From Methanocellales archaeon (GTDB lineage: Archaea; Halobacteriota; UBA148; JAUWXC01): 64,000 nt of DNA. Shown here piece by piece: positions 10,381-63,939 of this stretch. The stretch spans positions 38 through 64,037 of the forward strand of contig JASEEY010000005.1 of the NCBI GenBank assembly GCA_030018435.1. Reading direction: 5' to 3'. Below the pieces are notes generated by a model. The model had not been told where the DNA came from. It did no database searches and saw only the letters and a program-made list of their open reading frames with translations. The position numbers were made by a program, and so were the translations under genes. Each line of letters opens with the position of its first letter. Within the stretch, counting starts at the first letter, position 1.

Positions 10381-10860
10381 TCAGCCTCTTACGGTTATGT
10401 CTGCAATCAGCTGCTGGCTTGCGACATCAACGATCTTGATGTTGACTGATGCGCCAATTGCAGGCAGACTAACCTGCGCTTCAGCAGTGGTTGGTACTGT
10501 TAGCGTCAAGACACGGTCTGTAGTGCTGTTGTATATATACATGCTCTCGCCTGTCGATAATTGGTCAGTGGTTGCAAGGGCATTAGTCACCTCTTTACCG
10601 TCTACCAAGACTTTTATAGACGAACTCGCTAGAGTTATCGTGTCTCCGCCTTGGTGATCCAACTTGATGTAATTTGTGGTATCAACTTGTGCCACCGTAC
10701 CCCTAATGCTCGCCTGGGGCGCCATCGCTGGGGGCGCCATGCCGAAGACGAAGGCTGCGATGATGGCTGCGAGAATGACCGTAATGGCGACCATTAGAAT
10801 GACGCCAATGACTGGGCTCACTGCATCTTCGTTCGCTCTGAATTTCCTATTTGCTTTCAT
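10381..10860 (-). CDS. Archaeal type IV pilin-like protein (DUF1628 type), paralog of 9736-10215
   Basis: N-terminus DAVSPVIGVILMVAITVILAAI; C-terminus (SQQLIADITVRG) shared with the first copy. Confidence 0.7.
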   Translation of the reverse strand: MKANRKFRANEDAVSPVIGVILMVAITVILAAIIAAFVFGMAPPAMAPQASIRGTVAQVDTTNYIKLDHQGGDTITLASSSIKVLVDGKEVTNALATTDQLSTGESMYIYNSTTDRVLTLTVPTTAEAQVSLPAIGASVNIKIVDVASQQLIADITVRG

Positions 10861-18979: not shown

Positions 18980-20260
18980 ATGAAAGTTAGGGTCCGGCCC
19001 TCCGTAGTTCGGGGGGACATCTATGCGCCCCCGTCCAAGAGTTACACGCACAGGGCGATAACGATTGCTGCTCTTGGCAAGAAGGCGGAAATTTCGTATC
19101 CACTCCTCTCTAAAGACACGATGGCCACTGTTAGGGCCTGCGAGGCGTTTGGGGCAACGATACATGCGCCCGAGGAAAAAGAGGGCGTTTTGAAGATCGC
19201 CGGCGTTGACGGGCACCCTAAAACGCCGGAGGATGTGATCGATGCCGCGAACTCCGGTACGACGCTCAGGTTTATGACCGCAGTGGGAAGTTTGATGGAT
19301 GGAGCAGTGGTTCTGACTGGAGATGATTCACTGCGGAAACGCCCTAATGGGCCTTTGTTAAAAGCAATTAACGATTTAGGAGCAGTTGCGTTCTCCACCA
19401 AAGATGATGGGACTGCGCCAATCGTGGTCAGGGGCAAGATCAGGGGAGGTGTGACTACCGTTAGCGGGGAGATTAGTTCACAGTTCATCTCTGCGCTGTT
19501 ACTTGCCTGTCCTTTTGCGAGTGAGAACACCATAATAAGAGTGGACGGTGAATTGAAATCCAAACCATATGTGGAGATGACGTTGGATGTATTGGAAAGT
19601 GCTAGTGCCAAGGTAGTTACGGATTTAACCAAATTCGAAATCCCCCATAAGCAGGCGTTTAATCTTGGTTCATACGTCATTCCAGGCGATTTCTCTTCGG
19701 CATCATATTCGCTCGCAGCAGGAGCGATTACCAATTCAAAAGTTGTGGTGAGAAATCTATTTCCATCTAAACAAGGAGATGTTGCCATTGTTTCCATCCT
19801 TCAGCAAATGGGCGCGAATGTGATGTGGAATCAAGACAAAGGCATGGTGACCGTTGATGGAGCAGAGTTGAAGGGCATTAGGATCGATGTAGGTGCCCAT
19901 CCGGACTTGGTTCCAACTCTTGCAGTACTGGGAGCTTGCGCAGAAGGCGTTACACAAATCACCAACGCCGCCCATCTGCGCTACAAGGAGACCGACAGGT
20001 TAAGAGCGATGTCGACGGAGTTAAGAAAGATGGGTGCGAAGATAAAGGAGTTACCAGATGGCTTGGTCATTGAGGGATCGCGCTTGCATGGCGCCAAGTT
20101 GCATGGGTACAACGATCATAGGATTGTGATGGCACTTACTATCGCCGGTTTAGCCGCGAAAGGAGAGACGATCGTCGATGATGCGGAATCTGTGGAGGTA
20201 TCATATCCAGACTTTTTCGATGACTTATTTAGCATGGGAGCGAATATAGGGGTGGAATGA
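18980..20260 (+). CDS. aroA: 3-phosphoshikimate 1-carboxyvinyltransferase (EPSP synthase)
   Basis: 426 aa; LPxSKSxxxR-type N-terminus ([11 protein letters not shown]) and EPSPS family sequence. Confidence 0.9.
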
Positions 20261-21354
20261 TGTCTGGAAATTCATTTGGTCAGGTGTTTAGACTTACGAC
20301 ATGGGGCGAGAGTCATGGTCCCGCAATAGGTGCCGTCGTAGATGGCTGCCCAGCTGGATTGCCCTTAAGTGAGAAAGATGTCCAGGCTGAATTGGATAGG
20401 AGGCGACCTGGGCAGAGCGAGGTTACTACACCTAGGGGAGAGCCAGATGTCGTGGAAATCCTGTCAGGCGTGTTTGAGGGCAAGACGACCGGAACACCAA
20501 TCTCGATGCTGGTCCGGAATAAGGACGTTGAGTCTGGCGTGTACGAAGAGTTGCGGTATACGCCGCGACCTGGGCATGCTGATTTCACATATGAGATGAA
20601 ATACGGTTTTAGGGATTATAGAGGGGGAGGGCGCTCTTCTGCACGAGAGACAGTTGGCAGGGTTGCTGCTGGTGCCATAGCCAAGAAGCTGCTCGGGACG
20701 AAGAACGTGGAAATCTTGGGTCATGTCGTTGAGGTGGGCGGCATCTCGGTCGGCGGTGTTACCATAGACCAAATACGAAAAAATGTGGAAAAGAACCCAG
20801 TCAGGTGTGCTGACGTCAAGATAGCAGAGAAGATGCGCAAGCGCGTAGAGGGGGCAAAATCAGAGGGAGATAGCATCGGCGGTGTTGTTGAAATTTTAGC
20901 GCTTAACGTGCCCCCAGGCGTCGGTGAGCCTGTATTCGACAAGTTAGATGCGGATCTGGCAAAAGCGTTGATGAGCATAGGTGCCGTCAAGGGCATTGAG
21001 ATTGGAGCTGGTTTTAGAGCAGCAAAGATGAAGGGGAGCGAGATGAACGATCCGTTCAGGATTAAGGGCGGCGTTGTGATGACAGGGACGAACAATGCAG
21101 GGGGCATCCTTGGCGGAATATCCAACGGCATGCCCATCACATGCAGAATCGCAGTCAAACCAACATCCTCTATCTCCAAAGCGCAGAAGACCGTGGATTT
21201 GTCGAAGAAGGTTAACACTGAAATACAGATCAAAGGACGCCACGATCCATGCATATGCCCACGAATCGTTCCGGTGGCAGAGGCGATGGTTGCGCTCGTC
21301 CTGGCAGACCACATGATCCGGGGAGGGTTTATTCCCACTGTTTTAAAGTCCTAA
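20257..21354 (+). CDS. aroC: Chorismate synthase
   Basis: 365 aa; GESHG and GRSSARET motifs; ATGA overlap with aroA. Confidence 0.9.
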
Positions 21355-21394
21355 TTTGCCAAAAAGATATTTAGGATAGAATAATAATAGGTGC

Positions 21395-23239
21395 ATGATG
21401 AAGAATATGACGATACCAAAGACGATTTGGCGGCTTCTAATTATAGCAATACTCATAGCGATTGTATCTGCTTTGGGGATATCGTTATTAACCGTAAGTG
21501 TTTCTGCGGATGGAGGGATGGGTGGACCCGATTGTGTTCACTGTCATGATATCAAAGGAGGAGATGAGGGGCATAAGGGACATGTGGACGTTTCCGCGAT
21601 GAATCAAACGAATTCAATTCACGTCAATTTAAACAGCGGTGTTAGTACGTCCTTAAATCCTGATAATAAGCGTTGCTGGGCATGTCACGGCAATGGCACT
21701 CAACCCTCTGGACACGGGCACCCATCTAATTACAAGAGCCCTTACATCTGCTTGGATTGCCACATTTCTGGTGGCTCTCAGGTTGAGAAGTATAATGCTC
21801 CAATCGTCTTTGAGCACTACAGGAATGGCATGGACATAAAGGCGGCAACAAATGCATCAACAGACGTATTGGCCTGTATATCCTGTCATCAAAACGTGAA
21901 TGAGATGGTCTTATCAAACTCTGACCCTGATTATGGTCACAACATAACTGATGTAGATAAAGACGGAGTCCAAGGTGGCCCTAACTGTACCTATCACTAT
22001 GGCAGAAAGAGAACTGATCTGCAAACTGGTACTCCTCCCTATACCAACTGTTCATACTGCCATCAGAACGCCTCGACGGCATTTCCCTTTGTCAATGCAG
22101 ACCTCAAGAACCTTGAGAATCACACGCCAAGGATTACGAATCCCAGTTGTGTTGATTCCAGATGTCATGATGTTGGCCGGATACACAATTCAACACTGAA
22201 GATGCCGACGACCGTGGATTATACGCTGTGTACTGACTGTCATGGAGGCAAGAGCAGACATAACGATACTCTGGATTGCACAAAATGTCACGGGAATGCC
22301 ACGAACAAGATTCATCCAATCTTATATCTTGCATCTGACGGTACTTTTTCCACTTCGAACGTTTCGGCAGTGAACTGTATATCATGTCATCAGGAAGGAT
22401 ATATGGGCCCGCAAGTTTCTGATCCACTTCACCACAGCGAAGTAAACACAGGACAGCGCTGGGGCGATTATTGGACAGACGATTTATCCGCATGCACATA
22501 CTGTCATGACGATACAAAGCATGACGCAATAGCATTGGGAAGACCGGCAAATTGGAAAGGAGACAACATCGTTGGCTCATCCGTCAACAACAGCTACTGG
22601 TGTGCAGGCTGTCATTATCAGGGATACCAAAGTGGTGCACACAGCTACGAAAATATGGTTAACACATTCAATGGCTCTGGCTTAAACATCCCGCCAGAAA
22701 TCACCAACGGCACGTATGCACCCAACGTAACAGGATTCTATGAACACGTATGCGCTAACTGGTCAGATGCGCTCTGCAAAGAATGTCATGGCAAGTTTGT
22801 CAGCGGTTATAATGTAACCGAACTCATGCACAACGTTTCAGACGGCAGCTGCGGTAACTGCCACTATGACTTTGCATATATGAATGATGCCCGAAATGCG
22901 CCCACGAAATACGTGAACAGCACGATGTTCAATGCGAGCGTGCATGGGCCATCGTCGGGAATAGGGTGCGTAGACTGCCATACTACCTCAAATCATCCTT
23001 ACCCGGAGTATTACTGGAAGTGGTGCGAGTGCTGCCATGCCGTACAATCTAACCCTGTCGATGATACGGACAGGCACAACGTCACATCTGATGTGCGGAA
23101 CAACATGGTTGACGGTGTTTCAGTCCTCAGCATAATCGACTGTAAGACATGCCACAATGCAACCTCTTACGAAAATGCAAAGACCAATTTTGGATTGTGC
23201 AGATGGTGCCATACATATCCTGATAAAACATATGAGTGA
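21395..23239 (+). CDS. Multiheme c-type cytochrome, about 16 CxxCH plus one CX4CH, N-terminal signal anchor
   Basis: Counted CxxCH: CVHCH, CWACH, CLDCH, CISCH, CSYCH, CTDCH, CTKCH, CISCH, CTYCH, CAGCH, CKECH, CGNCH, CVDCH, CECCH, CKTCH, CRWCH, plus CVDSRCH; hydrophobic N-terminus. Confidence 0.85.
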   Translation: MMKNMTIPKTIWRLLIIAILIAIVSALGISLLTVSVSADGGMGGPDCVHCHDIKGGDEGHKGHVDVSAMNQTNSIHVNLNSGVSTSLNPDNKRCWACHGNGTQPSGHGHPSNYKSPYICLDCHISGGSQVEKYNAPIVFEHYRNGMDIKAATNASTDVLACISCHQNVNEMVLSNSDPDYGHNITDVDKDGVQGGPNCTYHYGRKRTDLQTGTPPYTNCSYCHQNASTAFPFVNADLKNLENHTPRITNPSCVDSRCHDVGRIHNSTLKMPTTVDYTLCTDCHGGKSRHNDTLDCTKCHGNATNKIHPILYLASDGTFSTSNVSAVNCISCHQEGYMGPQVSDPLHHSEVNTGQRWGDYWTDDLSACTYCHDDTKHDAIALGRPANWKGDNIVGSSVNNSYWCAGCHYQGYQSGAHSYENMVNTFNGSGLNIPPEITNGTYAPNVTGFYEHVCANWSDALCKECHGKFVSGYNVTELMHNVSDGSCGNCHYDFAYMNDARNAPTKYVNSTMFNASVHGPSSGIGCVDCHTTSNHPYPEYYWKWCECCHAVQSNPVDDTDRHNVTSDVRNNMVDGVSVLSIIDCKTCHNATSYENAKTNFGLCRWCHTYPDKTYE

Positions 23240-23245
23240 TGAAAT

Positions 23246-23668
23246 ATGCTGTCAAGTAGAAGAAAAGCGGTCATAATCGGCATTGCGATGGTGATGGTTG
23301 CCACATCACTGACAGCATATGCCCTATTTTTCGGCGGTCACACGCTCTACACTAGGAAGGATTCTCCAGATTACGGCTCTGCAGAGTTCTGCGTTAAATG
23401 CCATCCGGATGTCGTCGCCACAGCGATGGTCGGCGCGCATCAAAACGCAGGATGCATCTGCCATGGCTATCGTCCAGAAGAGGGCATCAATTTAGCGCAC
23501 AACCTGACCAAGCAGATATACTGCACGAACTGCCATTCGAACTATGACGCAGAAGGAAACATCACCATTCATGAAGGGGTGAGCGGATTAAATCAGTCAG
23601 GGCATTATATTACGAACTATACCGCTACGCTTTACAATAATTCACAACAATTCTTCAGCGGTAGTTAA
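23246..23668 (+). CDS. Small membrane-anchored c-type cytochrome (2-3 heme sites)
   Basis: N-terminal TM; CVKCH, CTNCH and an atypical CICH. Confidence 0.6.
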   Translation: MLSSRRKAVIIGIAMVMVATSLTAYALFFGGHTLYTRKDSPDYGSAEFCVKCHPDVVATAMVGAHQNAGCICHGYRPEEGINLAHNLTKQIYCTNCHSNYDAEGNITIHEGVSGLNQSGHYITNYTATLYNNSQQFFSGS

Positions 23669-23670
23669 CT

Positions 23671-24171
23671 ATGGTCAGAAGAGCGTTAATTTTGTTCACG
23701 GTATTAATTTTACTGGAAGCGTTGGTTCCTATAACGAGCGCCACCGAGATTCAGTGGCATGGATATGAAGAGGGTATGGCGCTTGCCAACTCCAACAATA
23801 TGTCAGTTATGATCGATTTCTATACGGAGTGGTGTGGGTATTGTAGAAAACTGGACGACGAAGTGTACGTGGATGACGAGATCATCGCGTTATCTGAAAA
23901 TTTTGTGAATATCAAGGTCGATTGTAATGCCCGTCCTGATCTACGGCAGAAATATGCTGTAACGGGCTACCCGACGATCGTGTTTTTAAATTCCAATGGA
24001 GACGAGGTTCATAGAGTGTATGGATATGTACCAGCAGATGAGTTCAAAACAGACATGCAAATCGCCTTAAACCTAAAAGATGCAACACCAACACCCACGC
24101 CTGGATTTGAAGCAGTACTTGGCGTAGCGGCGTTGATTAGTTTGGCGTTCAGGAGAAAATCGAATGACTGA
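23671..24171 (+). CDS. Secreted thioredoxin-fold thiol:disulfide oxidoreductase with PGF-CTERM sorting signal
   Basis: Signal peptide; WCGYC active site; Thr/Pro linker then PGF + TM + RRK tail (TPTPTPGFEAVLGVAALISLAFRRK). Confidence 0.75.
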   Translation: MVRRALILFTVLILLEALVPITSATEIQWHGYEEGMALANSNNMSVMIDFYTEWCGYCRKLDDEVYVDDEIIALSENFVNIKVDCNARPDLRQKYAVTGYPTIVFLNSNGDEVHRVYGYVPADEFKTDMQIALNLKDATPTPTPGFEAVLGVAALISLAFRRKSND

Positions 24172-24816
24172 TATATCTCCTTTAATCGCATTTTCTGCCG
24201 GAATCGTGAGCGTACTATCACCGTGCGTGCTCCCTCTTATTCCTGCGGTGATGACATACTCTACAGGAAAAGGACGGCTCAGGCCGTTGGCGATAGTGAT
24301 TGGACTATCGATGGCCTTCACCTCCATGGGCATAGTAGCCTCAGCCTTGGTATGGCATTCATCAGTTATGCACAATACCTGCGAATGGCTGCTGCTCTCA
24401 TAATCGTTTTTCTTGGACTTTACATGTTGTCCGAGTCACTAGAACGGAAATTGTCGATGCTAAAAAGCAGGATACTACCGAGTTTGAATCTTCCTACATC
24501 ATCTTCTAGCGTTTTAGGAGGGTTTATACTCGGACTATCGCTGGGCATCGCATGGGTGCCCTGCATAGGTCCGATACTCGGCACCATCTTAGTATTGGTA
24601 ACAATAAAAGCCAGCCTGTTCTATGGCGCGATGATGCTATTCATTTACTCACTTGGGCTAGGTATTCCGATACTTGTAATCGGCTATGTCACAAAGTCAT
24701 CTATGCAACTCGGCAAATTTGCTCGATACGGTGCAACCATCAAACGTGTTACCGGGGCAGTGCTGATCGTCGTTGGGTTATATATGATGTTACATTTTCT
24801 ACCCATAACGTTTTAA
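24164..24816 (+). pseudogene. ccdA: Cytochrome c biogenesis protein CcdA (DsbD-like), interrupted by a 1-nt frameshift near 24345-24356
   Basis: The N-terminal half (SPCVLPLIPAV) is ORF 24164-24403 and the C-terminal half (WVPCIGPILG) is ORF 24223-24816 in another frame. The junction at ttgg(g)tatggc suggests loss of one G. Confidence 0.7.
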
Positions 24817-25050
24817 GTTTCGACCGTTTTACTCTCGTCCTCTCCTTAAGACGTGGCTGATGTACTCTCTGCCCCTGCTCATTAATTCAACTAATAATTC
24901 AGCGGCATTCTTAACCAATCTGATGATGTACTCTATTAGGTACTTGGTCAATTGAAAAGGATCTCTAAGCGATTAGATAAGCCCACCATGTCAAAACAAG
25001 GGTTATCTTTTTATGTATGCAATTTATTAAAGTATACACAGTGAAAAGAT

Positions 25051-25356
25051 ATGCCTGCTACCGTATCTGTGCGATTGGACGATGAAATGATAAAGGATAT
25101 CGAGCTATTAAAGGAAGAGTCACAAGTGGACAGGTCTGAGATGGTGAGGAAACTATTGGACAGGGCATTAAAGCAAGCCAAGATCGAAAAAGCCATAGAA
25201 CTGCTCAGAAAGCATAAAATCTCAATTGGAAAAGCCTCTGAGTTAGCCGGGATGACTTTGTATGAAATGATCGAGCTGTGCAAGACGCGTGACATACATA
25301 TCGGGTACTCTATAGGGGACTTAAAAAAGGACTTGGATCAGTTTCCGATCAGATAA
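25051..25356 (+). CDS. UPF0175-family antitoxin (RHH-like N-terminus + UPF0175 domain)
   Basis: Sequence pattern ..IGKASELAGMTLYEMIELCKTRDI. Confidence 0.55.
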   Translation: MPATVSVRLDDEMIKDIELLKEESQVDRSEMVRKLLDRALKQAKIEKAIELLRKHKISIGKASELAGMTLYEMIELCKTRDIHIGYSIGDLKKDLDQFPIR

Positions 25357-25366
25357 GGTGTCTTAG

Positions 25367-25876
25367 TTGAGAGCAGTGTTGAATTCTACTCCGCTCATCT
25401 ATCTAGCCAAGATAAATCACTTAGACTTGTTAGGAAAAGTTTATGATCAAATCTACATCCCCACTCCTGTTTATGAAGAAACTGTCCAGAGGGGTCTGGA
25501 AAAGAAATTTTTGGATGCTGATATCATCAAGAATGCCGTTGACAGGGGAACCATTGAAGTTAGAGAGTTGACCTCGGAACAAAAGGCTGAAGCGAGGAGA
25601 CTAATCCAATTTGCAAATATAGGCGGAGGAGAGGCTGAAGCAATAGTGCTGGCAAAACATCTTAACATCGAATTGATGATAGATGATGTGGTTGCCCAGG
25701 GCGTTGCCAGAACTTTAGGATTAGATGCACACTGGACAACCAGTTTTATAATCAGACTGGTCAGCAAAAAGTTAATTTCTCGAAAAGAGGCCAGAAAAAT
25801 GATTGAAGATTTGGTGAGCAGTGGATACAGGATAAGTGAAGAAGTGCTCATCGAAATACTAAAAGTGTTGAGTTAA
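25367..25876 (+). CDS. DUF3368/COG2405 PIN-like toxin
   Basis: 169 aa; partner position downstream of the UPF0175 antitoxin; paralog of 28006-28503. Confidence 0.55.
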   Translation: MRAVLNSTPLIYLAKINHLDLLGKVYDQIYIPTPVYEETVQRGLEKKFLDADIIKNAVDRGTIEVRELTSEQKAEARRLIQFANIGGGEAEAIVLAKHLNIELMIDDVVAQGVARTLGLDAHWTTSFIIRLVSKKLISRKEARKMIEDLVSSGYRISEEVLIEILKVLS

Positions 25877-26199
25877 ATGAACTCCTCATCATAAACCAAG
25901 GGTAATACTAACCCAGGACTGAACTTAGCCCATCTATTTGCTCTTTTGTCCATTTTCTAGAGTTAGATTTTCAAAGACAAAGTTAGCCTTCTGTAGAGGT
26001 TCTTCTGCATCCTTTCTTCCCTATTTCTCTTATGTTTCTCTTATATCTGGGGGGGAGGGGATTCAGATAGGTAGATCGGGCTTACTAGATGGGGTATTTT
26101 GGTTTTGTTCCTTGAGCATTTCCGCTTAGGTTAGCAGCACCCGAAGACCTCTATAAATATTTAAATAGTCACTTAACGATGTGAAACATTGGTGATGGC

Positions 26200-26388
26200 A
26201 TGGAGAATCGCATTGAGATTAACCCAAGGGTTATGGCAGGGAAACCTATGATAAAGGGTACGAGGATTCCCATTTACCTTATTTTAGATTTGCTTGCAGC
26301 AGGGTATAAGAGCAAGGATATCGTAGCTGCAATAGAATATGCCTCAGGCATTCTCAAAAGGGAAGAGGTTGTAGAAGTAAAGGCATGA
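26200..26388 (+). CDS. DUF433-family small protein (orphan antitoxin-like)
   Basis: INPRVMAGKPMIKGTRIPIYLILDLLAAGYKSKDIVAAIEYAS matches the DUF433 pattern. Confidence 0.5.
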   Translation: MENRIEINPRVMAGKPMIKGTRIPIYLILDLLAAGYKSKDIVAAIEYASGILKREEVVEVKA

Positions 26389-26475
26389 GTTATCAATAAC
26401 TGACTCCCTTCAGTTAACACCGCTCCCTATTCCGCCTATAATGTTTTAAGTCATGAAGTAGCAGTTTGAGTTAGC

Positions 26476-27336
26476 ATGACTTTAAGAGGATGCGCATCAG
26501 CCTGCGGCGCAGGCACAATCATAAACGCCATCGCAACGTGGAAAGGTTCAGCCTTTGCCATTGATCTGCGAACCACCGCCGAGGTCGAGTTAGGCGAGGA
26601 TATGAAGCGCATTCAAGGAGAGATTAAAGGCGGTGGCGATGCTACGCTGATAGAGCGCTGCGTGGAGTTGGTGCTGCAAAAGTTCGGTTATGCAGGCGGT
26701 GCGCACGTTAGAACGAGCAGCGAGATACCCATCGCCAGAGGGCTAAAGAGCAGTTCTGCAGCGGCAAATGCAACAGTCCTAGCAACGCTGAGTGCGCTGG
26801 ACAAGAAAATGGAGGCTTTGGAAGCAGTACGCTTGGGAGTTCATGCCGCTCTCGATGTAGGAGTGACGGTAACCGGCGCCTTCGACGATGCTGCAGCCTC
26901 TTTTTTAGGTGGCATCGTGGTCACCAATAACAAGACCATGCAACTCGTGAAGAGGGTTGAAAGAGACGAGGATGTGCTGATTCTGGTGCCCGAGGAGAAG
27001 GTATTCACCGCGGAGACAAACGTGGAAAAGATGAAGTTAATCGCCCCCTGGGTGGAGCTGGCATACGATTTAGCATTAGAAGACAGATTCGAAAAGGCGA
27101 TGACGTTAAATGGTATTTTGTATTGCGTCGCTCTGGAATTTGACCCATGCATCATCATCAAGGCATTAGAAGCGGGTGCAAGCGGTGCCAGTCTATCAGG
27201 AACGGGTCCAGCGTTTTGCGCTCTTGTGAAAAAGGATAGAATAAGCGCTGTGAAAGAAGCATGGAGCGACTTCAACGGAAAAATCATTAGGACGAAGATC
27301 AATAATGAAGGTGCAAGGGTGGAAAGATGTCGTTAA
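26476..27336 (+). CDS. aroK: Shikimate kinase, archaeal GHMP-kinase type
   Basis: 286 aa with GHMP kinase motifs; archaeal-type shikimate kinase. Confidence 0.8.
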   Translation: MTLRGCASACGAGTIINAIATWKGSAFAIDLRTTAEVELGEDMKRIQGEIKGGGDATLIERCVELVLQKFGYAGGAHVRTSSEIPIARGLKSSSAAANATVLATLSALDKKMEALEAVRLGVHAALDVGVTVTGAFDDAAASFLGGIVVTNNKTMQLVKRVERDEDVLILVPEEKVFTAETNVEKMKLIAPWVELAYDLALEDRFEKAMTLNGILYCVALEFDPCIIIKALEAGASGASLSGTGPAFCALVKKDRISAVKEAWSDFNGKIIRTKINNEGARVERCR

Positions 27337-27614
27337 AGGATGTTCGGGAGAAAATCCAGAATATCGATGACCAGATCGTAGAACTCATAGCTCAACGTAC
27401 TAATCTGGCGGAAGATGTGCTGGAGGAAAAGAAAAAGGAGGGCATAGGCATCGACGATGAGGAGCAGAGGGAGATCGTGCTCAACCGGATGGTGGAAGCG
27501 GCAACAGAGCGCAATCTTGACGCGGGTGCAGTAAAACAAATCTATGAAATACTCATAGAGATGAACGTTGAACGTCAGCGCGAGCTGAGCGGAAAAGGAA
27601 AGTTGCAGCCATAG
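27327..27614 (+). CDS. Chorismate mutase (AroQ class)
   Basis: 95 aa; LKDVREKIQNIDDQIVELIAQR is a typical AroQ helix 1. Confidence 0.8.
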   Translation: MSLKDVREKIQNIDDQIVELIAQRTNLAEDVLEEKKKEGIGIDDEEQREIVLNRMVEAATERNLDAGAVKQIYEILIEMNVERQRELSGKGKLQP

Positions 27615-27680
27615 CTATCGTATTTTTCCGCCAATCCCCTCCAATAAACTAAGCGACATGTTTAAGTGTAATGAAAAGTA

Positions 27681-28022
27681 ATGATTTGTAATGTGATGAA
27701 GATGGGCAACGTCCAGGTAAGAATATCTAATGAGATGTTAGGCGAGATAGACAGGCTGAGCAGGATGCTCGAAAGCTCAAGATCAGAAGTGATCAGAAAA
27801 GCCCTTGATGATGGCATAAGTCGCATAAAAATGGAGGCGACTCTGAGAGATTACATAGATAACAAGATAACGTTGTGCAAAGCAGCTGTACTGGCTGGAA
27901 CGTCTGTCATGGAGTTTGCAGAGTACGCTGCAGAAAAGGGCATCCCATTCATGAGATATGGGGCAGAGGAGGCTGAAGAGGATCTGTTAAGGTTGAGGAA
28001 ACGGCATGAAAGTGCTGATTGA
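27681..28022 (+). CDS. UPF0175-family antitoxin (second copy)
   Basis: RISNEMLGEIDRLSRM.. RHH-like then ..LCKAAVLAGTSVMEFAEYAAEKGIP. Confidence 0.55.
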   Translation: MICNVMKMGNVQVRISNEMLGEIDRLSRMLESSRSEVIRKALDDGISRIKMEATLRDYIDNKITLCKAAVLAGTSVMEFAEYAAEKGIPFMRYGAEEAEEDLLRLRKRHESAD

Positions 28023-28503
28023 CGCTTCTTCACTGATAGCGTTAACAAAGACAGGATCGCTTGACCTCATCAAGGACGTCTTCGGCAGAGTTTTTATAAC
28101 CAAAGAGATCGAGAAAGAGATCACATCTGGCACTTTAGCTGACGTTGCAATCCTGAAGGGGAAGATCAAAGACTGGATTGAGGTCATCGAATCTCCCAGT
28201 TCCAAAGAATATTACACGAAACTAAAAGGACTGGATGAGGGAGAGTGCAGCATCCTCGGATATGCAAAGGAAAATAAAGACGTTTTACTCATATTAGATG
28301 AGGTAGAGGGCAGAGCAGTCGCAGAAGCCGAAGGTTTTACTCACACCGGAACTCTTGGATTGATCGTCTATGCCTGTGAAAAACGCATAATATCAAAATC
28401 CAGGGCGATGGGAATAATCAAGAAGCTATCCAGAAGTGAGTTCAGAATGACCACTGAGCTATATGACTGGGCCTTGACCAAGATAGAGGCTGTCAAGAAG
28501 TGA
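28006..28503 (+). CDS. DUF3368/COG2405 PIN-like toxin (second copy)
   Basis: MKVLIDASSLIALTKTGSLDLI.. PIN-like N-terminus; overlaps the antitoxin stop. Confidence 0.55.
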   Translation: MKVLIDASSLIALTKTGSLDLIKDVFGRVFITKEIEKEITSGTLADVAILKGKIKDWIEVIESPSSKEYYTKLKGLDEGECSILGYAKENKDVLLILDEVEGRAVAEAEGFTHTGTLGLIVYACEKRIISKSRAMGIIKKLSRSEFRMTTELYDWALTKIEAVKK

Positions 28504-28531
28504 TGTGGACCGCCTGAAACAAACGTATTGA

Positions 28532-29836
28532 TTATCGTATTTTTCCGGCAATCCCCTTCAACAATTCTTCGACTGCGCCCTGCACATCTTTTGGATTTTT
28601 ATCACCAAGAATGGCGACCCTGAGCGTGATGCTGAGGTGTCCCTCCCTGAGTTTGAATGTGTCTATCACTTCTGCCGATGTGACGCCATCCACGCCCTTG
28701 ACAACTTGGGCGATGATGTCTGGCTTGACGTTTTCAGCTAAAACGACGGATATGTCTCGCCTGTGATGCACCAGATTCTCAACCTTCCACTGTCGCAGCT
28801 CATCCGGACTGAGCAGCTTAACGTTCTCGATTTTCAGCTTGGTGCATTTCCCGTTTCTTTCCAGCACGAGGGTTTGAGGTGTGACCTTCCTGATAACGCC
28901 AATGTGCACAACACCGGAGTAGATGTGCTGCAGCGCCCTCTCAGTCCCAATTGAGTGCATCAGCTCCTCTATCTCGGCGATCTTTGCGTTCACGAGTTTG
29001 TCTGATCGCCTGAGTGCTGCCTCGGTATCGCCAAAGTGAGCCGCGGCCTTTCTCATCGAGCGGACAAACTCATCTACGTCATCCTTTTTGATGCCTTTCG
29101 AAAGCTCCTTACACTGGGCTATGAACGTGCTGCGCACCTTCTCCACCTCTGGATTGGTCTGAATCGTCGCATACAGGTGTGGATTCTGCGCCAGGATTCT
29201 GCCCACAAAATCGATCATGATCTCGTAGACAGGACTCATGAATCTCCGCGATTTGCCTATGTCGAAATCCAATGCGTCCAGGGTTGCACCCGTCGAGATG
29301 TATGCAAAGTGCGTCAGCCCTTGGACGACTGCCATTATTCTATCATGCTCCTCTGCAGAGAGTATCTCCACGTGTGCCCCGTTATCCTCAAAGAGGGTCC
29401 TTATCTTTGGCAGCCATCTCTCGTCCCGCCCTTCTACGGGCACCAGGATCACGGTCTGTCCTTTTATATCCGGCACCATGGGACCGAACATCGGATGCGT
29501 TCCAATTAACTCGACACCCTTTGGCGCCTTTTTCATTGCCTCCATAGGGCCTTTCTTGACCGATGTCACGTCCGTGAGCAGGCTGCCTGGCCTCATCTTT
29601 GGCGCTATCCTGGATATCACCTCCTCTGTGACATCGATTGGAACTGATATCAGCACGATATCAAAGTCTCCTGCATTTTGGGCATCGCCCAGGGCAACCC
29701 CCAGTTCGTTCGCTATTTCAGATGTGTGAGGGTCGATGTCCGCAATGGCGATGTCCATGCCCTGCCCTTTTAGAAATCGTGCGAACCACTGCCCCATCTC
29801 ACCGGCGCCGCCTACGATTAGCGTTTTAGCGCGCAT
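28532..29836 (-). CDS. tyrA: Prephenate dehydrogenase with C-terminal ACT-like domain
   Basis: 434 aa; Rossmann GxGxxG at the N-terminus; TyrA family. Confidence 0.85.
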   Translation of the reverse strand: MRAKTLIVGGAGEMGQWFARFLKGQGMDIAIADIDPHTSEIANELGVALGDAQNAGDFDIVLISVPIDVTEEVISRIAPKMRPGSLLTDVTSVKKGPMEAMKKAPKGVELIGTHPMFGPMVPDIKGQTVILVPVEGRDERWLPKIRTLFEDNGAHVEILSAEEHDRIMAVVQGLTHFAYISTGATLDALDFDIGKSRRFMSPVYEIMIDFVGRILAQNPHLYATIQTNPEVEKVRSTFIAQCKELSKGIKKDDVDEFVRSMRKAAAHFGDTEAALRRSDKLVNAKIAEIEELMHSIGTERALQHIYSGVVHIGVIRKVTPQTLVLERNGKCTKLKIENVKLLSPDELRQWKVENLVHHRRDISVVLAENVKPDIIAQVVKGVDGVTSAEVIDTFKLREGHLSITLRVAILGDKNPKDVQGAVEELLKGIAGKIR

Positions 29837-58192: not shown

Positions 58193-59289
58193 GCGCAGAA
58201 GCGAAAACGGAAGGAAAGGATGAACTGACAAAGAAAAAGCTGATTGACATCATAGGAGAATTTTACGGTCAGCTACAGAGCGAGAGAGTTCCTTACCTCA
58301 ATCTGCCGACCAGAACCAAGGCTAACATTGAATACAATGATGCGTCAGAGGTGTGGGTTTACGGCGACAGAGAGAGTGTGAGGAGTGCAAAAACCGTCAG
58401 GGGGGCATACCAGTTACTCAAAACCTCATATGTAGTGGATTTTCTGAACGCCCAGTTAGATCAGGCAAAATCTTCCACGTTGAGGGAGTTGTACTATATC
58501 TCCGAGAACTGGGACTTGGCAAAGTTTAGGGAACAGCAGGAAAGCGATAGGTTGATAGAAGACCTGGAAATCGTGAGTGAGCTACAAAGGGAGAACTTCC
58601 ATATCAGGCCGGAGGAGGATGGCGCCTCTGTTTTGGGTCCCATCAAGATCAAAGAGCAGACGAGAAGGGGCACAAAGATCATCCATTGCCAAGATGACGT
58701 TGGCGAAGGGGGGTACCAGATACCCAACAACGTCGATAACCTGGAGTTTTTGGAGCACGATGCAAAAATGATCATAGCGATAGAGACTGGTGGTATGAAG
58801 GATAGGCTGATTGAGAACGGCTTTGACGAAAAGTTTAACACGATCATAGTGCACCTGAAGGGTCAGCCGGCCAGAAGCACAAGGCGATTGCTCAAACGGA
58901 TGAACGAAGAGCTGAAGATACCCGTAGTGGTGTTCACCGATGGGGACCCGTGGTCGTATAGGATATTCGCTTCCGTCGCATATGGGGCGATAAAGAGCGC
59001 CCACCTATCAGAATACATGGCGACTCCTGCAGCACAGTTCATCGGCATTCGCCCCTCGGACATAGTCAACTATGAATTACCAACGGATAAGTTGTCTGAC
59101 CAGGACATAAGAGCTTTGCATTCGATGCTCTCTGATCCAAGATTCGAAAGTGAGTTCTGGCAGAGCGAAATCAATCTGCAACTTGAATTAAACAAGAAGA
59201 GCGAGCAACAGTCGTTAGCGAAGTACGGATTGGATTATGTGACGGATACATATCTGCCAGAACGGTTGAGTGAGATGGGTGTCATCTAA
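58189..59289 (+). CDS. top6A: DNA topoisomerase VI subunit A (Spo11 homolog)
   Basis: 366 aa; Toprim region IAIETGG; ATGA overlap with top6B. Confidence 0.9.
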
Positions 59290-60185
59290 AGTCTCTCGGT
59301 TTTTCTAAACGTGGATACCTCGCGCAGTAGATTGTGCAGTGTAGGGGGCAATTTTCCCTTCAGCATGTAAATGCTCCATGCGTAGTATATGTATGCATAG
59401 ATACCGAGAACGATGTAGAGAGAGCTGAACATGATCTCGCTCGGCAGCAGGATGTCCATGAGGATTGTGACGGTCGGGATTATCAAGATAGGTACAGAGC
59501 CCCAGACCCAGACGCCAACATTATGCCACAGATTATACTCAGTAGTGATGCCAATCCACCATATGAAGAACATCGCCGTCACCACATAGGGCACAAAGCC
59601 CCTGGGATATTGTACCATGAACAGAAATGCTGCGAAGGTGATGTTTATCAGCACGACGATTTTGATGAGAAACAGTATTGGATCAGAAGGATATGTCCCG
59701 CCCCCCAACCTTGAAGACGTTCCTTTGCTAACAGCTCCTCTGCCACCAAACGCGCCAACGCGCTCCTTTAGGTCGTCGATGCTGACGTCGATCGTATTCA
59801 TCTTCTTGGTTGCTTCTTCCAGCCTAGCCTGTACGCTAGCAATCTCCTTGAGTAGCGGCTTCAGCCGCCTGTACACGCCTTCCTCAAATGCGGTGTCAAT
59901 CATGCTCTCGAATAGAAGCGCCTGTTTGACCAAGGAGAAAGCGCCAAGCCCTGCGCCTATTCCAATAAACAAGATGATCGAATTCTTGATGAGCTCCAAC
60001 TTGCTGAATTCATAGGTAAAAACGCGGATGAGTGGGAAAATTGAGATATAAATCAGGAATAACGATGCGCATAGTGCGCAAGCGATGTTCAATTTTTGTA
60101 ATAACGACAAACGCTTCTCTTGCATTGTCACGTGCTCTCTCCACCCGTTATTTAGGGCATTATGTATATCTTTTCTTCGGTGCAT
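59286..60185 (-). CDS. Hypothetical polytopic membrane protein with internal coiled coil
   Basis: ORF hydropathy only. Confidence 0.4.
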
Positions 60186-60981
60186 CTGGATTGCTATGCA
60201 AATAATGATCGGTGCTCACTGAAACAGGGCTAACCTCGGTATGGCTATGACATCCCAGACAAGTCCAGAAGCCCTTGGATATGTACTGTCCATCCGGAGC
60301 GATGTTTCCGCCTGGCTGCCCGAAGGGGTTTCCGTCCATGTACGATGAGCTCTCACTGTTAGCGCTGGTATAAAACGGCACGTGAACATTGTCCTTGCTT
60401 AACAAGTAGCCCACATGTACGACACTTGAAGAAGCATTCGGGAATAGATCTGGATCGTTGTATTGATGCACTGCATTGCCGTGACACCTGTCATCATCAC
60501 AACCCCTCGCGGTCGTGTTCGTGTGCGTTGTGCTCAAACCAAAAAGCGTTGCCTTGTGGCACAGGAAGCACATCTCATCGACGTTGATATATCCATCTCC
60601 ATCGTCGATGCTCACGAGCAACAGTTTTCCATCACTACTTCTCTGCCACTTTTCCTCGGTGGCGTTCCATATCCATACATCGCTGACACCATTACCGTCT
60701 CCATCGTAATTCGTCCATATGGTCGCATTGGTTTTGTCATAATCAATCCCGCCGACCGATAGATAGGTGAGATAGTCGGTGTTGTTTGCAGCCCTCCGAT
60801 GCGCTTCGTAAACATCACCCATGTCAGCGCTCAACTGATCTGCCACATCAATATGGCAGCGCAGGCACCCTACATTGGTTCTGAAGGTATGCTGACCTGC
60901 GAATAAGGAGTAAACTGCCGGTAAAACAAATAAGATGATGGCAATCGCCGCTAGGATTAATAGCACGGTTTTTTGTTTCAC
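60160..60981 (-). CDS. Membrane-anchored c-type cytochrome (3 CxxCH + 1 CX4CH) with two dockerin/EF-hand-like Ca-binding loops
   Basis: CLRCH, CFLCH, CLGCH, CDDDRCH; loops NYDGDGNGVSD and DDGDGYINVDE; N-terminal TM with LFAGQH motif. Confidence 0.7.
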   Translation of the reverse strand: MKQKTVLLILAAIAIILFVLPAVYSLFAGQHTFRTNVGCLRCHIDVADQLSADMGDVYEAHRRAANNTDYLTYLSVGGIDYDKTNATIWTNYDGDGNGVSDVWIWNATEEKWQRSSDGKLLLVSIDDGDGYINVDEMCFLCHKATLFGLSTTHTNTTARGCDDDRCHGNAVHQYNDPDLFPNASSSVVHVGYLLSKDNVHVPFYTSANSESSSYMDGNPFGQPGGNIAPDGQYISKGFWTCLGCHSHTEVSPVSVSTDHYLHSNPDAPKKRYT

Positions 60982-61019
60982 GCTCTCACCGATTATGTTA
61001 ATTTATCTTACTAATTATA

Positions 61020-61754
61020 TTAAACGCTTTTTACCTTAAACTCTTCCAGCGTCATGTAGAGATAAAGCGCAATCATGATGATGAATAGCAGGAGCCCAGA
61101 ACTCTTCACCATCTGCACCAGCGATTTGATGAGTCCATATTCCCCTCCATACTTGGTGACGTAGATTGGATTGGCTGGATCCTCGATGAAGTAATAGCCG
61201 AGATTCTCGATGATGATGGGTTTTTCATTTAGTAGGATTGCCTGACCCTCGATCTCGTTTCTGCGCACAACCCAGGGATCAACTCTGGGATTGGCATCAC
61301 CTTTTGTCCTGTATATCCCATCCTCAATGGAGTAAATCCTGTGCACCACAGGATGCACGACGTATGCAGTCTCAAATTTGATTATGTCGCCCTCCTGGGG
61401 ATTCACGAAAAGGTTCTGCATCAAAACCAAGTCACCCTTGTTGAACGATGGTGCCATACTACCAGAGCCTATAGCAACGAAGTAGATTATGTTCAGGTAA
61501 AGGATGATTCCCAGCAACATCACGATGATGAGCGGAAGCGCAGACGTCACGATGCGCGGCTTTTTGGAAAGTTCCTCATACCTGCGCATGATCATGTTGA
61601 TGCGGTCTTCCCTGCTGCGCTCAATAAATCTATCTGCGATTTTTCCGAGCAGGGCAAATGGGTAGATGGCGCTCCTTCTCTTGATCATATACAGCGTGCA
61701 AAAGATGGCGATTAGAACGCCCATCCAGATGACTAAGCCAATCGTATTGCTCAT
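61020..61754 (-). CDS. Archaeal type I signal peptidase (S26B/Sec11-like)
   Basis: Catalytic-Ser motif AIGSGSMAPS, conserved His/Asp region; two flanking TMs. Confidence 0.75.
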   Translation of the reverse strand: MSNTIGLVIWMGVLIAIFCTLYMIKRRSAIYPFALLGKIADRFIERSREDRINMIMRRYEELSKKPRIVTSALPLIIVMLLGIILYLNIIYFVAIGSGSMAPSFNKGDLVLMQNLFVNPQEGDIIKFETAYVVHPVVHRIYSIEDGIYRTKGDANPRVDPWVVRRNEIEGQAILLNEKPIIIENLGYYFIEDPANPIYVTKYGGEYGLIKSLVQMVKSSGLLLFIIMIALYLYMTLEEFKVKSV

Positions 61755-61868
61755 ACCAACCTCAGATGATCATTGACCCTTCAATAAAAAGGAAGAATAA
61801 ACTAAAAAAAGAAAAAGATGGTGGTCTAAGACCACCATTTTTGTTTTTAGTCAGTAGTCGCAGTTAGC

Positions 61869-62405
61869 TTATGGATAACCGCCACCAGATGTCGTGGTTG
61901 TGTTAGTGCCTTCTGCAGTGAAGTTACCAATAACCCATCCCGTCACTGGATCGTGATCTGCTGTGAACGTCAATGTAGTCGCTCTGATCCATGTGATGTT
62001 CACGCCGGTGTGGGTGTGGCATCCAATGCATGCTTCATTTGCCCCTGTTTCAAGTCCAGATGTCATCGCACCCTGATAGAACTCTGTGTGGGATTCGTTT
62101 GCGTGGAGAAGTTCATCGTCCACCTTGTCATGGCAAGCTACGCACGGCGGTGATATTGAAGCATGTTGGGTTGCATTATCGAAGCCAGCTTTAGGGGTTT
62201 GGTGACAGGCCCCGCACTTAAAATAATAGTGCGGCCCACCCGCAGCCAATTCATCGTATTCTGCACCGTGACACTTGGAACAATCCACATCCTTGGGTCC
62301 TATGAATGCGTGCTGCCCTGCAAACAACGAAAGCACTGATGGCAGTACGAACAGACCGACTGCTAACACTGCTGCTACTAACACAAGCGTTTTGTTTCCT
62401 ACCAT
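61869..62405 (-). CDS. Membrane-anchored tetraheme c-type cytochrome
   Basis: CSKCH, CGACH, CVACH, CIGCH; N-terminal TM plus LFAGQH motif. Confidence 0.75.
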   Translation of the reverse strand: MVGNKTLVLVAAVLAVGLFVLPSVLSLFAGQHAFIGPKDVDCSKCHGAEYDELAAGGPHYYFKCGACHQTPKAGFDNATQHASISPPCVACHDKVDDELLHANESHTEFYQGAMTSGLETGANEACIGCHTHTGVNITWIRATTLTFTADHDPVTGWVIGNFTAEGTNTTTTSGGGYP

Positions 62406-62559
62406 TTTTGTTCTCCCTTTAAATCATTCACAATTCTATACGGACGCCTTGCACTTGGCGTCATGAAATCCTACTTTTAGGATTCCTTGAACGGGATTAT
62501 TTACTTTGTTAATATATAAGTTCTTTGCTATTATTGTTATGCCGTTCAGATGTGATCGT

Positions 62560-63939
62560 TCACCATTTGATGTAAATCTTCGTCCTTACCTCGTACCTGT
62601 TATTGTGGTTGTCTTCGATTAGAATCCTTACATCACGCTCTCCTGTCCTCGCCCTGCTTAGGTCATACTGATCGACCGGTATGTTGGAGCCGTGACAGGA
62701 GTCACACCACCCTTTGCCCATATGCTTATCATGAAGTCTATATGTCGAACTGTAATCTTTATAGCGGTGGCAAATGTAGCACTGCTCTTTTGGATTTACG
62801 TTTAGCACCTCATCCTGATCATGACATCCCACGCAAGTGATCTCATCACCGTGTTTCTCGTGAATTCGCCTGGAGTCTCCATCGTACGATTTGCCGCTGT
62901 GACAGTTATTGCATGATGTTATCGGCGTGATATCAGGCACATCTAAACCATGACACCAATAACAGAAATCACCGGATTCACCAATGTCCTTCTTGGCGTG
63001 CTTCATGTGCACATCCGAGTAAACCTTGTTAGGATCGTATCTCTCTGGCGAGCCATGACAGATGGCACAGTATTCCCCGGAAGGTTCTAGGGTAGTGCTT
63101 GCCGGAATGGCGTGACAATCGCCACACAGCGCTTTATCATCATGCTTCTTGTGCATGCTCGCATACCGGCTTGAGTAATAAGCTGGATCGTACTTGCTCC
63201 CATGACATAGTTGGCAACTGTAATCATGCGGCATGCTTGGATGACATGAGTAACAATCCGCTGTCGTCGGTGTCACGCTTGGATTTTCATGGCATAGTGC
63301 GCAGTTATCATTGTGCGTGACCATCAAGTTCGAGTTGTGGCAGTAGATACAGTCGCCCGTGGTGGATACATGCACCGCTTCTATGTCGCCATGGATCACG
63401 TGACACGCATCACAGGCAGTGTTCTTAGTTGATATGGCATTCTGAACTGTTGGATCCATACTGGCGTGACATGTCGAGCAGTTATAGCCTCTATTCTCAT
63501 GCTCTATCGTTAGGTCATTGTCATGACAACTCAGGCAATCGGGGGTTAAACTTGATTGATGTATCTCTGTCATGTTGTGCACTGCTTCATGACAATTTTC
63601 GCATGTATATACAATGGGGACCCCCGCCGGCGTCCCGTGCGAGCCGTGTGGTACATTTGCAGGGTCATGACAATCAGAACAGATAATGTTTAAGTGACAT
63701 TGATTGCAGGTCTCGTCCATTCCAAAATCTTTTTCTATATGAGGATTATGCACCTGATTCGCAGTGAGATTCGTAGGATCGGTTCCAAGTTGGAAATATC
63801 CACATGGAGTGTATACCGCAGGCCATGTATATTCTGGGGGAGACCAAGTCTGCCATACCGTTTTGGCCTTATATTCGGTATGACAATTCCAACAAACGGT
63901 GGATCGGTCTATAGGTGGCGTCGTAAAAATCGACAACAT
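62560..63939 (-). CDS. Multiheme c-type cytochrome with 18 CxxCH in 459 aa; 5' end probably frameshifted/extends past window end
   Basis: 18 CxxCH counted. No signal peptide on the annotated ATG; an alternative frame just upstream encodes a hydrophobic stretch plus CSQCH. Confidence 0.75.
   Translation of the reverse strand: MLSIFTTPPIDRSTVCWNCHTEYKAKTVWQTWSPPEYTWPAVYTPCGYFQLGTDPTNLTANQVHNPHIEKDFGMDETCNQCHLNIICSDCHDPANVPHGSHGTPAGVPIVYTCENCHEAVHNMTEIHQSSLTPDCLSCHDNDLTIEHENRGYNCSTCHASMDPTVQNAISTKNTACDACHVIHGDIEAVHVSTTGDCIYCHNSNLMVTHNDNCALCHENPSVTPTTADCYSCHPSMPHDYSCQLCHGSKYDPAYYSSRYASMHKKHDDKALCGDCHAIPASTTLEPSGEYCAICHGSPERYDPNKVYSDVHMKHAKKDIGESGDFCYWCHGLDVPDITPITSCNNCHSGKSYDGDSRRIHEKHGDEITCVGCHDQDEVLNVNPKEQCYICHRYKDYSSTYRLHDKHMGKGWCDSCHGSNIPVDQYDLSRARTGERDVRILIEDNHNNRYEVRTKIYIKW

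Follow-up and report, generated by a model that had tools for sequence, protein, structure and literature searches.

Why do genes for a 17-haem-motif cytochrome, a small cytochrome, an extracytoplasmic thioredoxin and the thiol-disulfide transporter CcdA lie within an operon for aromatic amino acid biosynthesis, and are they recent arrivals there? This question is raised by a 64,000-nucleotide stretch of a Methanocellales archaeon (contig JASEEY010000005.1; the whole stretch is referred to as the window), in which the four genes separate aroA and aroC from the genes for the archaeal shikimate kinase (aroK) and chorismate mutase (CM). An earlier note on this DNA had placed this cassette at 21395–24816, headed by a multihaem c-type cytochrome (MHC) of about 17 haems, and had regarded it, together with adjacent toxin–antitoxin (TA) genes, as a horizontally acquired island. 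Motif and Pfam analyses confirmed the four genes at these coordinates and the haem number, and a frameshift in the CcdA gene at about 24349, which had been missed, was additionally revealed. With a probability of roughly 0.68, we interpret the cassette as an old, chromosomally fixed accessory locus of a Methanocellales clade near Candidatus (Ca.) Serpentinarchaeum (Met12, MAG-838), consisting of two sub-modules inserted between aroC and aroK, for which we infer the function of a surface electron conduit.

The relatives compared were mostly metagenome assemblies, and their contigs or loci are numbered L001–L089, of which L001 and L003 represent Met33H, L004 represents CSMAG_2511, and L076 represents MAG-838. 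In L089, the site was empty: aroA, aroC, aroK and CM followed one another directly, with tyrA and aroE behind them on the opposite strand and an 11-nt overlap between aroC and aroK (87% and 81% identical to those of the window, respectively). In the more distant L007, aroC was also found next to aroK. Since the aro genes are contiguous in the former and aroC and aroK are adjacent in the latter, all four cassette genes are extra relative to the empty site, and the view of the earlier note that the aro genes on both sides constitute one ancestral operon was borne out by this synteny. The same aroC–MHC junction was present in at least five other genomes, among them Met33H, L002, L004 and L086. 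An overlap of 41 nt joins the contigs L086 and L088 into one genome, which shows the complete order aroA-aroC-MHC-small cytochrome-thioredoxin-CcdA-aroK-CM and does not carry the first of the two TA pairs described below.

Other genomes filled the slot differently. In Met12 it holds a membrane protein gene and a DtxR gene on the opposite strand and no cytochrome (Suzuki et al., 2024, PMC11176372, Suppl. Dataset 5), and in MAG-838 it holds FeoB, FeoA and DtxR, the fillers in the Serpentinarchaeum clade being on the opposite strand. MAG-838, which originates from Lost City, has been placed together with Met12 in Ca. Serpentinarchaeum, a group of non-methanogenic archaea of serpentinizing systems whose genomes measure about 1 Mb (Suzuki et al., 2024, PMC11176372). 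Met33H (CP061209) is deposited as a ‘complete genome’ of 987 kb. In cultured Methanocella species, aroC is located far from aroK-CM, and in Ca. Methanoperedens nitroreducens two genes lie between aroC and aroK. The latter interval was considered as a candidate thioredoxin–CcdA pair and rejected: one of the genes encodes SepRS, and no entry for the other could be located in the gene table.

The spacer between aroC and the MHC gene was preserved together with the junction, with 37–38 of its 40 positions being the same in L003 and L004 in the DNA alignment. Its A/T-rich, TATA-like stretch ATATTTAG, which precedes the ATG of the MHC gene by about 25 nt, may serve as a promoter, and the spacer also includes the Shine–Dalgarno-like AGGTG, a candidate ribosome-binding site. 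The MHC itself carries 16 CXXCH motifs and one CX4CH motif, that is, 17 haem motifs in total, and 22 further His residues outside them, while in 2000 shuffles of its residues CXXCH occurred 0.13 times on average and three times at most. Its Pfam matches, all above the respective cut-offs, were Cytochrome_C7 (65 bits; cut-off 24.8), MtrC/MtrF domain II/IV (PF22113; 56 bits, residues 273–414) and Cytochrom_CIII (31 bits). A single N-terminal hydrophobic segment (residues 14–32, followed by SVSA/DGG) was recognized by hydropathy estimation, and 24 N-glycosylation sequons were counted. The sequon density per 100 aa was 3.9 and 3.6 in the two cytochromes of the cassette versus a window median of 0.10; together with the N-terminal hydrophobic helix present in each, this density predicts that both proteins are extracellular. 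The dN/dS values (ratios of nonsynonymous to synonymous divergence) of the MHC gene were 0.21–0.26.

When the single MHC sequence was searched against the PDB, nothing significant was obtained, and structural matches came from the family profile only, namely MtrF (3pmq; E=7e-18, confined to MtrF residues 448–631), Hmc (E=2e-10) and cytochrome c554. OmcS, OmcZ and hydroxylamine oxidoreductase were absent from the 51 PDB sequences that this profile matched at E≤0.01, so that the OmcZ/OmcS/Hao-like class suggested beforehand found no match and MtrF, Hmc and cytochrome c554 appeared in its stead. Membership in the decahaem MtrC/OmcA/MtrF group was also rejected, because only one domain (273–414) matches, the motifs number 17 rather than ten, and the four-domain architecture is missing. 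Neither could the protein be assigned to MHC-A or MHC-B of the anaerobic methanotrophic archaea (ANME) as defined by Chadwick et al. (2022, PMC9012536), since it possesses no Pfam S-layer domain and no C-terminal helix.

The small cytochrome encoded immediately downstream showed no Pfam match, and a PDB search with its single sequence likewise gave nothing significant. Between its two CXXCH motifs lies a CXCH motif, C70-I-C72-H73 in the window protein, which was invariant as GC(I/S)CHGY in all 48 aligned family members. The complete set of invariant residues comprised H32, C49xxC52H53, H65, C70xC72H73-G-Y, H85, C93xxC96H97 and H120. In alignment with a tetrahaem protein resembling MmcX, which is encoded elsewhere in the window, the CXCH fell on the second CXXCH of that protein, one residue short. 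A full-text literature search for CXCH in combination with haem found no description of this motif as a haem c site. The family was narrow: 165 of 5.8 billion proteins gave a match, and 1.84 billion representatives yielded 22 clusters at 50% identity. Its named members came from metagenome-assembled genomes of Methanoperedens and Methanosarcinales. The family profile matched PDB 8E5G at E=0.026 over the N-terminal helix and the first haem only, and hhalign paired the small cytochrome with the MmcX-like protein of the window at a probability of 77% (E=1.9e-5); on these comparisons, it may at best be a remote relative of MmcX. We tentatively propose, as an idea with a modest chance of being right, that the 140-aa protein represents an undescribed family of membrane-anchored trihaem proteins, which would bind the middle haem at the invariant CXCH and would provide the giant cytochromes of ANME/Methanoperedens-type archaea with a dedicated entry or exit point at the membrane.

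The affinities of the two cytochromes pointed in one direction. Outside the clade of the window, MHC homologues shared 34–45% identity and came mostly from Ca. Methanoperedens, and neighbour-joining of the conserved core placed the MHCs of the clade within the Methanoperedens-type homologues. On the Methanoperedens-like contig L084, a 41%-identical MHC followed by a 47%-identical small cytochrome was located beside mcrBDGA. Of the metagenome loci, 31 extended far enough upstream to show the preceding gene, and at 19 of these the small cytochrome gene was situated directly 3' of a large MHC open reading frame (ORF), and the upstream MHC ORFs at the metagenome loci encoded 8–38 CXXCH motifs. At many of these loci, genes for a three-haem cytochrome, a tetrahaem protein resembling MmcX and a protein similar to signal peptidases come next. 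Beside the small cytochrome gene, neither aro nor thioredoxin nor CcdA genes occurred at any of 61 metagenome loci. Judged by homology and gene order, the MHC and the small cytochrome are thus a conserved two-gene unit of Methanoperedens/ANME-type cytochrome clusters.

The remaining two genes encode proteins of a different kind. The thioredoxin (Trx) matched Pfam Thioredoxin at 58.5 bits and PGF-CTERM at 22.5 bits (cut-off 18.8), and its score against the NCBIfam model PGF_CTERM TIGR04126, 22.7 bits, was slightly under the cut-off of 24.5; the protein ends in PTPTPGFEAVLGVAALISLAFRRKSND, has one N-terminal hydrophobic segment, and its gene showed dN/dS values of 0.16–0.24. DsbD_TM (PF02683) matched two ORFs in different frames, 24164–24403 (profile positions 7–69) and 24223–24816 (profile positions 84–217). 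DNA alignment with the intact 654-nt orthologues of L004 and L078 revealed that one G is missing from a GGG run at the frameshift position, and the repaired reading gave a protein of 217 aa with six transmembrane (TM) segments as well as SPC and VPC motifs, each with a cysteine. On the 3' side of the frameshift, dN/dS was 0.23–0.31, similar to that of intact orthologue pairs; because this sequence is still under purifying selection, the lesion is either very recent or an assembly error.

The same Trx–CcdA gene pair has been reported in Methanosarcina (PMC6262447), and Met12 carries it away from the aroC–aroK slot (PMC11176372, Suppl. Dataset 5). CcdA is also present in Methanocella species. 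Among the relatives compared, the pair and the cytochromes were uncoupled: L078 kept the pair without the cytochromes, and Met33H, L002 and L082 kept the cytochromes without the pair. The Trx–CcdA pair is a general feature of archaea with no fixed link to cytochromes. Of the proposal that the cassette brings its own thiol-reducing pathway for the cytochromes, the pathway itself appears plausible by analogy with CcdA–ResA and CcmG, whereas an obligatory or dedicated role was not upheld.

The locus behaved as accessory, as had been suggested, in that different relatives have lost different parts of it. In L078, the order is aroC-Trx-CcdA-aroK-CM, and a scar, TCAGCGGTAGTTGA, corresponding to S-G-S-stop of the small cytochrome gene, lies between the aroC stop codon and the Trx start codon. 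The small cytochrome genes of Met33H, L002 and L082, which have no Trx behind them, end in the same codons; their persistence in L078 indicates that L078 has lost the cytochromes. In Met33H, the MHC gene is frameshifted after about 70 codons. In L086 (2453–5347), the MHC adjacent to aroC is a mosaic protein of 964 aa, whose C-terminal 334 residues are 71% identical to the window MHC and whose N-terminal part contains non-haem Ig-like domains (Pfam Big_7 and Big_13) and different haem motifs. The aroC gene of L086 is split by a frameshift.

The TA genes that follow the cassette were confirmed by Pfam, but their inclusion in the island did not hold. In L078 and L088, TA pair 1 is absent and aroK follows CcdA after about 26 nt. 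Between CcdA and TA pair 1, the window retains a remnant of a giant ParA/CbiA-like gene, the translation of which ends in REYISHVLRRGRE and a stop codon, compared with REYIRRVLRRGRE and a stop codon in L004. The intact gene encodes 1615 aa in L004, where it converges on CcdA, and in Met33H it follows the small cytochrome gene. From just upstream of aroK onwards, window positions 26430–26520 were 87% identical to L078 1574–1664, a segment that includes the final 20 nt ahead of the CcdA stop codon of L078. Because of the ParA remnant and the duplicated CcdA end, the interval 24817–26429, which includes TA pair 1 and a DUF433 gene, is regarded as a later insertion or replacement at the CcdA–aroK junction, and TA pair 1, as read from this arrangement, is a separate, later arrival outside the cassette. 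TA pair 2, located beyond CM, is bracketed by a direct repeat (27616–27647 and 28533–28564; 91% identical), the second copy of which coincides with the 3' end of tyrA. L088 also has this pair (94% and 88% identity); L089 and L076, in which CM abuts tyrA, lack it. TA pair 2 thus looks like an insertion that duplicated its target, and TA pair 1 appears similarly tied to a duplication of about 20 nt. The possibility that the two pairs are duplicates of each other was rejected, as they are only 25–31% identical.

Table 1. Positions of the cassette, its flanking genes and the later insertions in the window
Feature	Position	Strand	Basis or remark
aroA (18980–20260) and aroC (20257–21354)	18980–21354	+	Upstream half of the interrupted operon; NCBIfam aroA 448 bits, aroC 493–510 bits
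Spacer between aroC and MHC, 40 nt	21355–21394	+	Kept among relatives
MHC, 614 aa, predicted secreted, N-terminal signal or anchor helix	21395–23239	+	Motifs, Pfam, hydropathy
Small membrane-anchored cytochrome, 140 aa	23246–23668	+	Two CXXCH, CICH, one N-terminal TM helix
Extracytoplasmic thioredoxin, 166 aa, signal peptide, WCGYC active site, C-terminal PGF-CTERM	23671–24171	+	Pfam, hydropathy
CcdA (DsbD_TM) thiol-disulfide transporter, frameshifted	24164–24816	+	DsbD_TM, DNA alignment
Pseudogene remnant, last ~45 codons of giant ParA/CbiA-like gene	24829–24960	-	blastn, 81% over 227 nt to L004 14425–14649
TA pair 1: UPF0175/RHH antitoxin (25051–25356) and PIN/DUF3368 toxin (25367–25876)	25051–25876	+	Pfam
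Orphan DUF433 gene, 62 aa	26200–26388	+	Pfam DUF433, 52.8 bits
Duplicate of the final ~20 nt of CcdA, immediately 5' of aroK	26430–26449	+	Marks the original CcdA–aroK junction
aroK, archaeal shikimate kinase (26476–27336), and CM (27327–27614)	26476–27614	+	Downstream half of the operon; Shik_kin_archae 289 bits, CM ~62–70 bits
TA pair 2: UPF0175 (27681–28022) and PIN/DUF3368 (28006–28503)	27616–28564	+	After CM, flanked by the copies of a 32-nt direct repeat

The age of the insertion was reflected in both divergence and composition. The synonymous divergence (dS) of the cassette genes, 0.23–0.79, was of the same order as that of aroC, 0.64–0.88, and the dN/dS values of all four genes (0.05–0.32) indicated purifying selection. 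GC content, GC content at third codon positions and codon usage of the cassette stayed within the range of the window, differing from its genes by no more than about 1.5 standard deviations (codon z-scores, −1.5 to +0.9), so the atypical composition that might have betrayed an island was not found; the only compositional outlier was the PIN toxin gene of TA pair 1 (GC 0.406, z −2.6). No integrase ORF occurred in the window, no direct repeats were found bracketing 21355–24816, and the nearest tRNA gene was 23 kb off, tRNA genes being confined to 47.7–48.0 kb. When viral contigs were scanned with both the small-cytochrome profile and the MHC, and plasmids with the MHC, no relatives turned up. 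The same junction in relatives, the host-like composition, the purifying selection and the lack of an integrase, a nearby tRNA gene and flanking repeats together argue for an old insertion rather than a recent island; from these sequence comparisons, the insertion is old, inherited within one small clade, and lost piecemeal.

A recent mobile extracellular-electron-transfer island, which would have landed with its TA genes in the aro operon of this particular genome, could explain the empty site in L089, the TA genes adjoining the cassette, and a GC content of the region slightly below that of the aro flanks (0.44–0.48 versus 0.50–0.53). This scenario is largely refuted, and we consider it very improbable: the junction and spacer recur in at least five other genomes, with MHCs that are only 70–80% identical; the dS and codon usage of the cassette are comparable to those of its surroundings; neither integrase, terminal repeat, close tRNA gene, nor viral or plasmid relative was found; and TA pair 1, missing from L088 and L078 and lying next to the ParA-gene remnant, came in a separate later event. 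What stands of the island proposal is the insertion itself and the foreign, Methanoperedens/Methanosarcinales-type affinity of the cytochromes, whereas recency and self-mobility were contradicted by the shared junction, the dS values and the lack of integrase and repeats. It is also conceivable that nothing was inserted at all, the cassette, or at least Trx–CcdA, having been located in the aro cluster of the common ancestor of the clade, L089 and Serpentinarchaeum, with subsequent losses. Deletions at this locus do occur, as seen from the L078 scar and the loss of Trx–CcdA in Met33H, L002 and L082; the aroC product of L089 ends in …GGFIDI instead of the …GGFIP… seen elsewhere, as expected if a deletion breakpoint fell inside aroC; and some small cytochromes have been considered ancestral to these orders (Suzuki et al., PMC11176372). 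This alternative, however, presupposes that clean loss or replacement took place independently at least two or three times, in L089, in the Serpentinarchaeum clade with its opposite-strand DtxR filler, and in the outgroup L007. The dispersed aro genes of Methanocella, the SepRS-containing interval without cassette genes in M. nitroreducens, and the 61 small-cytochrome metagenome loci, none of which adjoins aro, Trx or CcdA, also speak against it, and we regard it as unlikely.

A third explanation concerns function rather than origin, namely that the cassette is a decaying relic on its way out, with CcdA inactivated and no physiological role left. The lesions enumerated above, comprising the CcdA frameshift of the window, the MHC frameshift of Met33H, the deletion of the cytochromes in L078, the absence of Trx–CcdA from three relatives and the replaced N-terminal half of the L086 MHC, would all fit such decay. 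Nevertheless, the MHC, small cytochrome and Trx ORFs of the window are intact, the upstream spacer is conserved, and the dN/dS of 0.05–0.32 in all four genes is unchanged 3' of the CcdA frameshift; this explanation is therefore quite improbable.

Several points weigh against the reading that we prefer, the old accessory insertion with a role in electron transfer. The polarity of the insertion rests on parsimony with few genomes, and the shorter and different aroC C-terminus of L089 means that its contiguity could stem from a deletion. Over 4.6 kb, L001 and L003 show 100% identity; they possibly stem from the same data and hence do not confirm each other independently. The single-base frameshifts in CcdA of the window, the MHC of Met33H and aroC of L086 may be assembly errors. 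The AlphaFold2 models were poor and gave no structural support, with a mean predicted local distance difference test (pLDDT) of 59.8 and a predicted template modelling score (pTM) of 0.40 for the MHC and 54.6 and 0.32 for the small cytochrome. Maturation capacity is only putative here, as CcdA is frameshifted and no Ccm genes were found in the 64-kb window. Electron transfer as such, the direction it would take and the partners involved are likewise inferences.

With these reservations, a surface electron conduit appears to be the most likely function of the cassette, and the old accessory insertion may be pictured as follows. Sub-module A, the 17-haem cytochrome with the small anchored cytochrome, would most probably have come from a Methanoperedens/ANME-2-type gene pool by transfer or relocation, and sub-module B, the PGF-CTERM-anchored thioredoxin with CcdA, would represent a general archaeal route for carrying reducing power across the membrane. 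Both apocytochromes would be exported by Sec, their CXXCH cysteines would be held reduced by CcdA and the surface thioredoxin, and a Ccm system with genes beyond the window would attach the haem. The small cytochrome, held in the membrane by its single helix, could then pass electrons to or from the presumably heavily N-glycosylated 17-haem protein, which would span the cell envelope as a wire of haems, either to take up electrons from outside the cell or to dispose of them there; electron uptake has been proposed in the model for Met12 (PMC11176372). At a later stage, as the sequence comparisons show, a ParA-like gene block and then the UPF0175/PIN TA pair entered the CcdA–aroK junction, and the cassette eroded differently by lineage, including the 1-nt CcdA frameshift in the window.

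A second cytochrome cluster was identified on the minus strand of the window (59286–63939), 36 kb from the cassette. It includes an MHC that is at least 459 aa long and carries 18 CXXCH motifs (62560–63939), beyond which further CXXCH-coding sequence continues in another frame to the end of the window; the MmcX-like tetrahaem protein of 178 aa (61869–62405), which matched the Archaeoglobus veneficus cytochrome nanowire PDB 8E5G at E=6.5e-13; a signal-peptidase-like membrane protein (61020–61754); a 273-aa cytochrome with three CXXCH motifs (60160–60981); and a 299-aa protein with six TM segments and without a Pfam match. The cassette MHC was tested as a paralogue of the 18-haem protein, and no such relationship was detectable, the BLASTP match (23% identity, E=0.001) being driven by the motifs. 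Separately, an archaeal type IV pilin gene was found at 10381–10860 on the minus strand (Pfam Pilin_N, 87 bits). In Met12, a pilin gene and MmcX are the two most highly expressed genes (PMC11176372).

The cassette is situated at one end of a large biosynthetic region, an aromatic amino acid supercluster of about 22 kb (window 18980–40651). The probable genes of this supercluster are aroA, aroC, aroK, CM, tyrA, aroE, aroD, those for an archaeal dehydroquinate (DHQ) synthase and a DeoC-type enzyme, trpA, trpB, trpC, trpG, trpE and further trp genes, and probably a prephenate dehydratase gene, with the functions past aroE being assigned from ORF sizes and an order matching that in the Pfam-annotated L088 and L089. 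In CSMAG_2511 (L004 7336–9805), aroA encodes 450 aa with only 43% identity to that of the window and is preceded by an extra 110-aa helix-turn-helix gene, whereas the neighbouring aroC is 89% identical; this aroA thus looks like a xenologous replacement.

A large Methanoperedens-type MHC in relatives of the non-methanogenic, small-genome Ca. Serpentinarchaeum would add to the archaea for which electron exchange with minerals or partner cells can be considered. The locus also offers a natural series of variants, comprising the empty site, the full cassette, cassettes with the cytochromes or Trx–CcdA deleted, with CcdA or MHC frameshifted, and with a domain-swapped MHC, which could link genotype to haem-protein content and electron-transfer capacity. 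In addition, the small cytochrome with its CXCH motif provides a testable lead on how the membrane connects to the giant cytochromes of archaea. More generally, the present analysis corrects a reading in which cytochrome and TA genes within an operon signify a fresh mobile island, as the insertion proved old and the TA genes unrelated later arrivals.

Compared with known systems, the locus is a putative accessory electron-transfer locus of an already known kind. With MtrC/MtrF/OmcA of Shewanella (3pmq), the cassette MHC shares a haem-packing domain typical of surface electron conduits, whereas it has only one matching domain, 17 haems rather than 10, an archaeal envelope around it, and no partner porin or MtrA. 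Thiol reduction by CcdA and an extracytoplasmic thioredoxin is represented by CcdA–ResA of Bacillus, by CcdA/DsbD–CcmG of proteobacteria and by the Trx2–CcdA gene pair of Methanosarcina (PMC6262447). The window resembles these systems in the order of Trx followed by CcdA, in the CXXC and signal peptide of Trx, and in the six TM segments and two cysteines of CcdA, but it differs from them in the PGF-CTERM surface anchor of Trx, in the lack of an obligatory link to cytochromes and in the frameshift of CcdA. A further likeness was to the large MHCs of Ca. Methanoperedens and ANME-2, in which the identity extends over most of the length, the motif pattern including the conserved CX4CH is the same, the same small cytochrome is encoded directly downstream, and the same role as a haem conduit across the archaeal envelope has been proposed. 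Differences lie in the number of haems, 20–80 being reported for large ANME MHCs (Chadwick et al., 2022, PMC9012536) versus 17 motifs in the window MHC; in the gene order, since MHC, small cytochrome, three-haem cytochrome, MmcX-like protein and signal peptidase stand together in Methanoperedens/ANME-type loci and are split between 21.4 kb and 59–64 kb in the window; and in the host, which belongs to a Methanocellales lineage. Ca. Serpentinarchaeum aceticum Met12, a member of a related group, shares the idea of cytochrome-mediated extracellular electron exchange, and its MmcX/AvECN-like gene has a counterpart in the window; none of its five cytochromes is like the large ANME MHCs (PMC11176372), whereas the MHC of the cassette is of the large Methanoperedens type.

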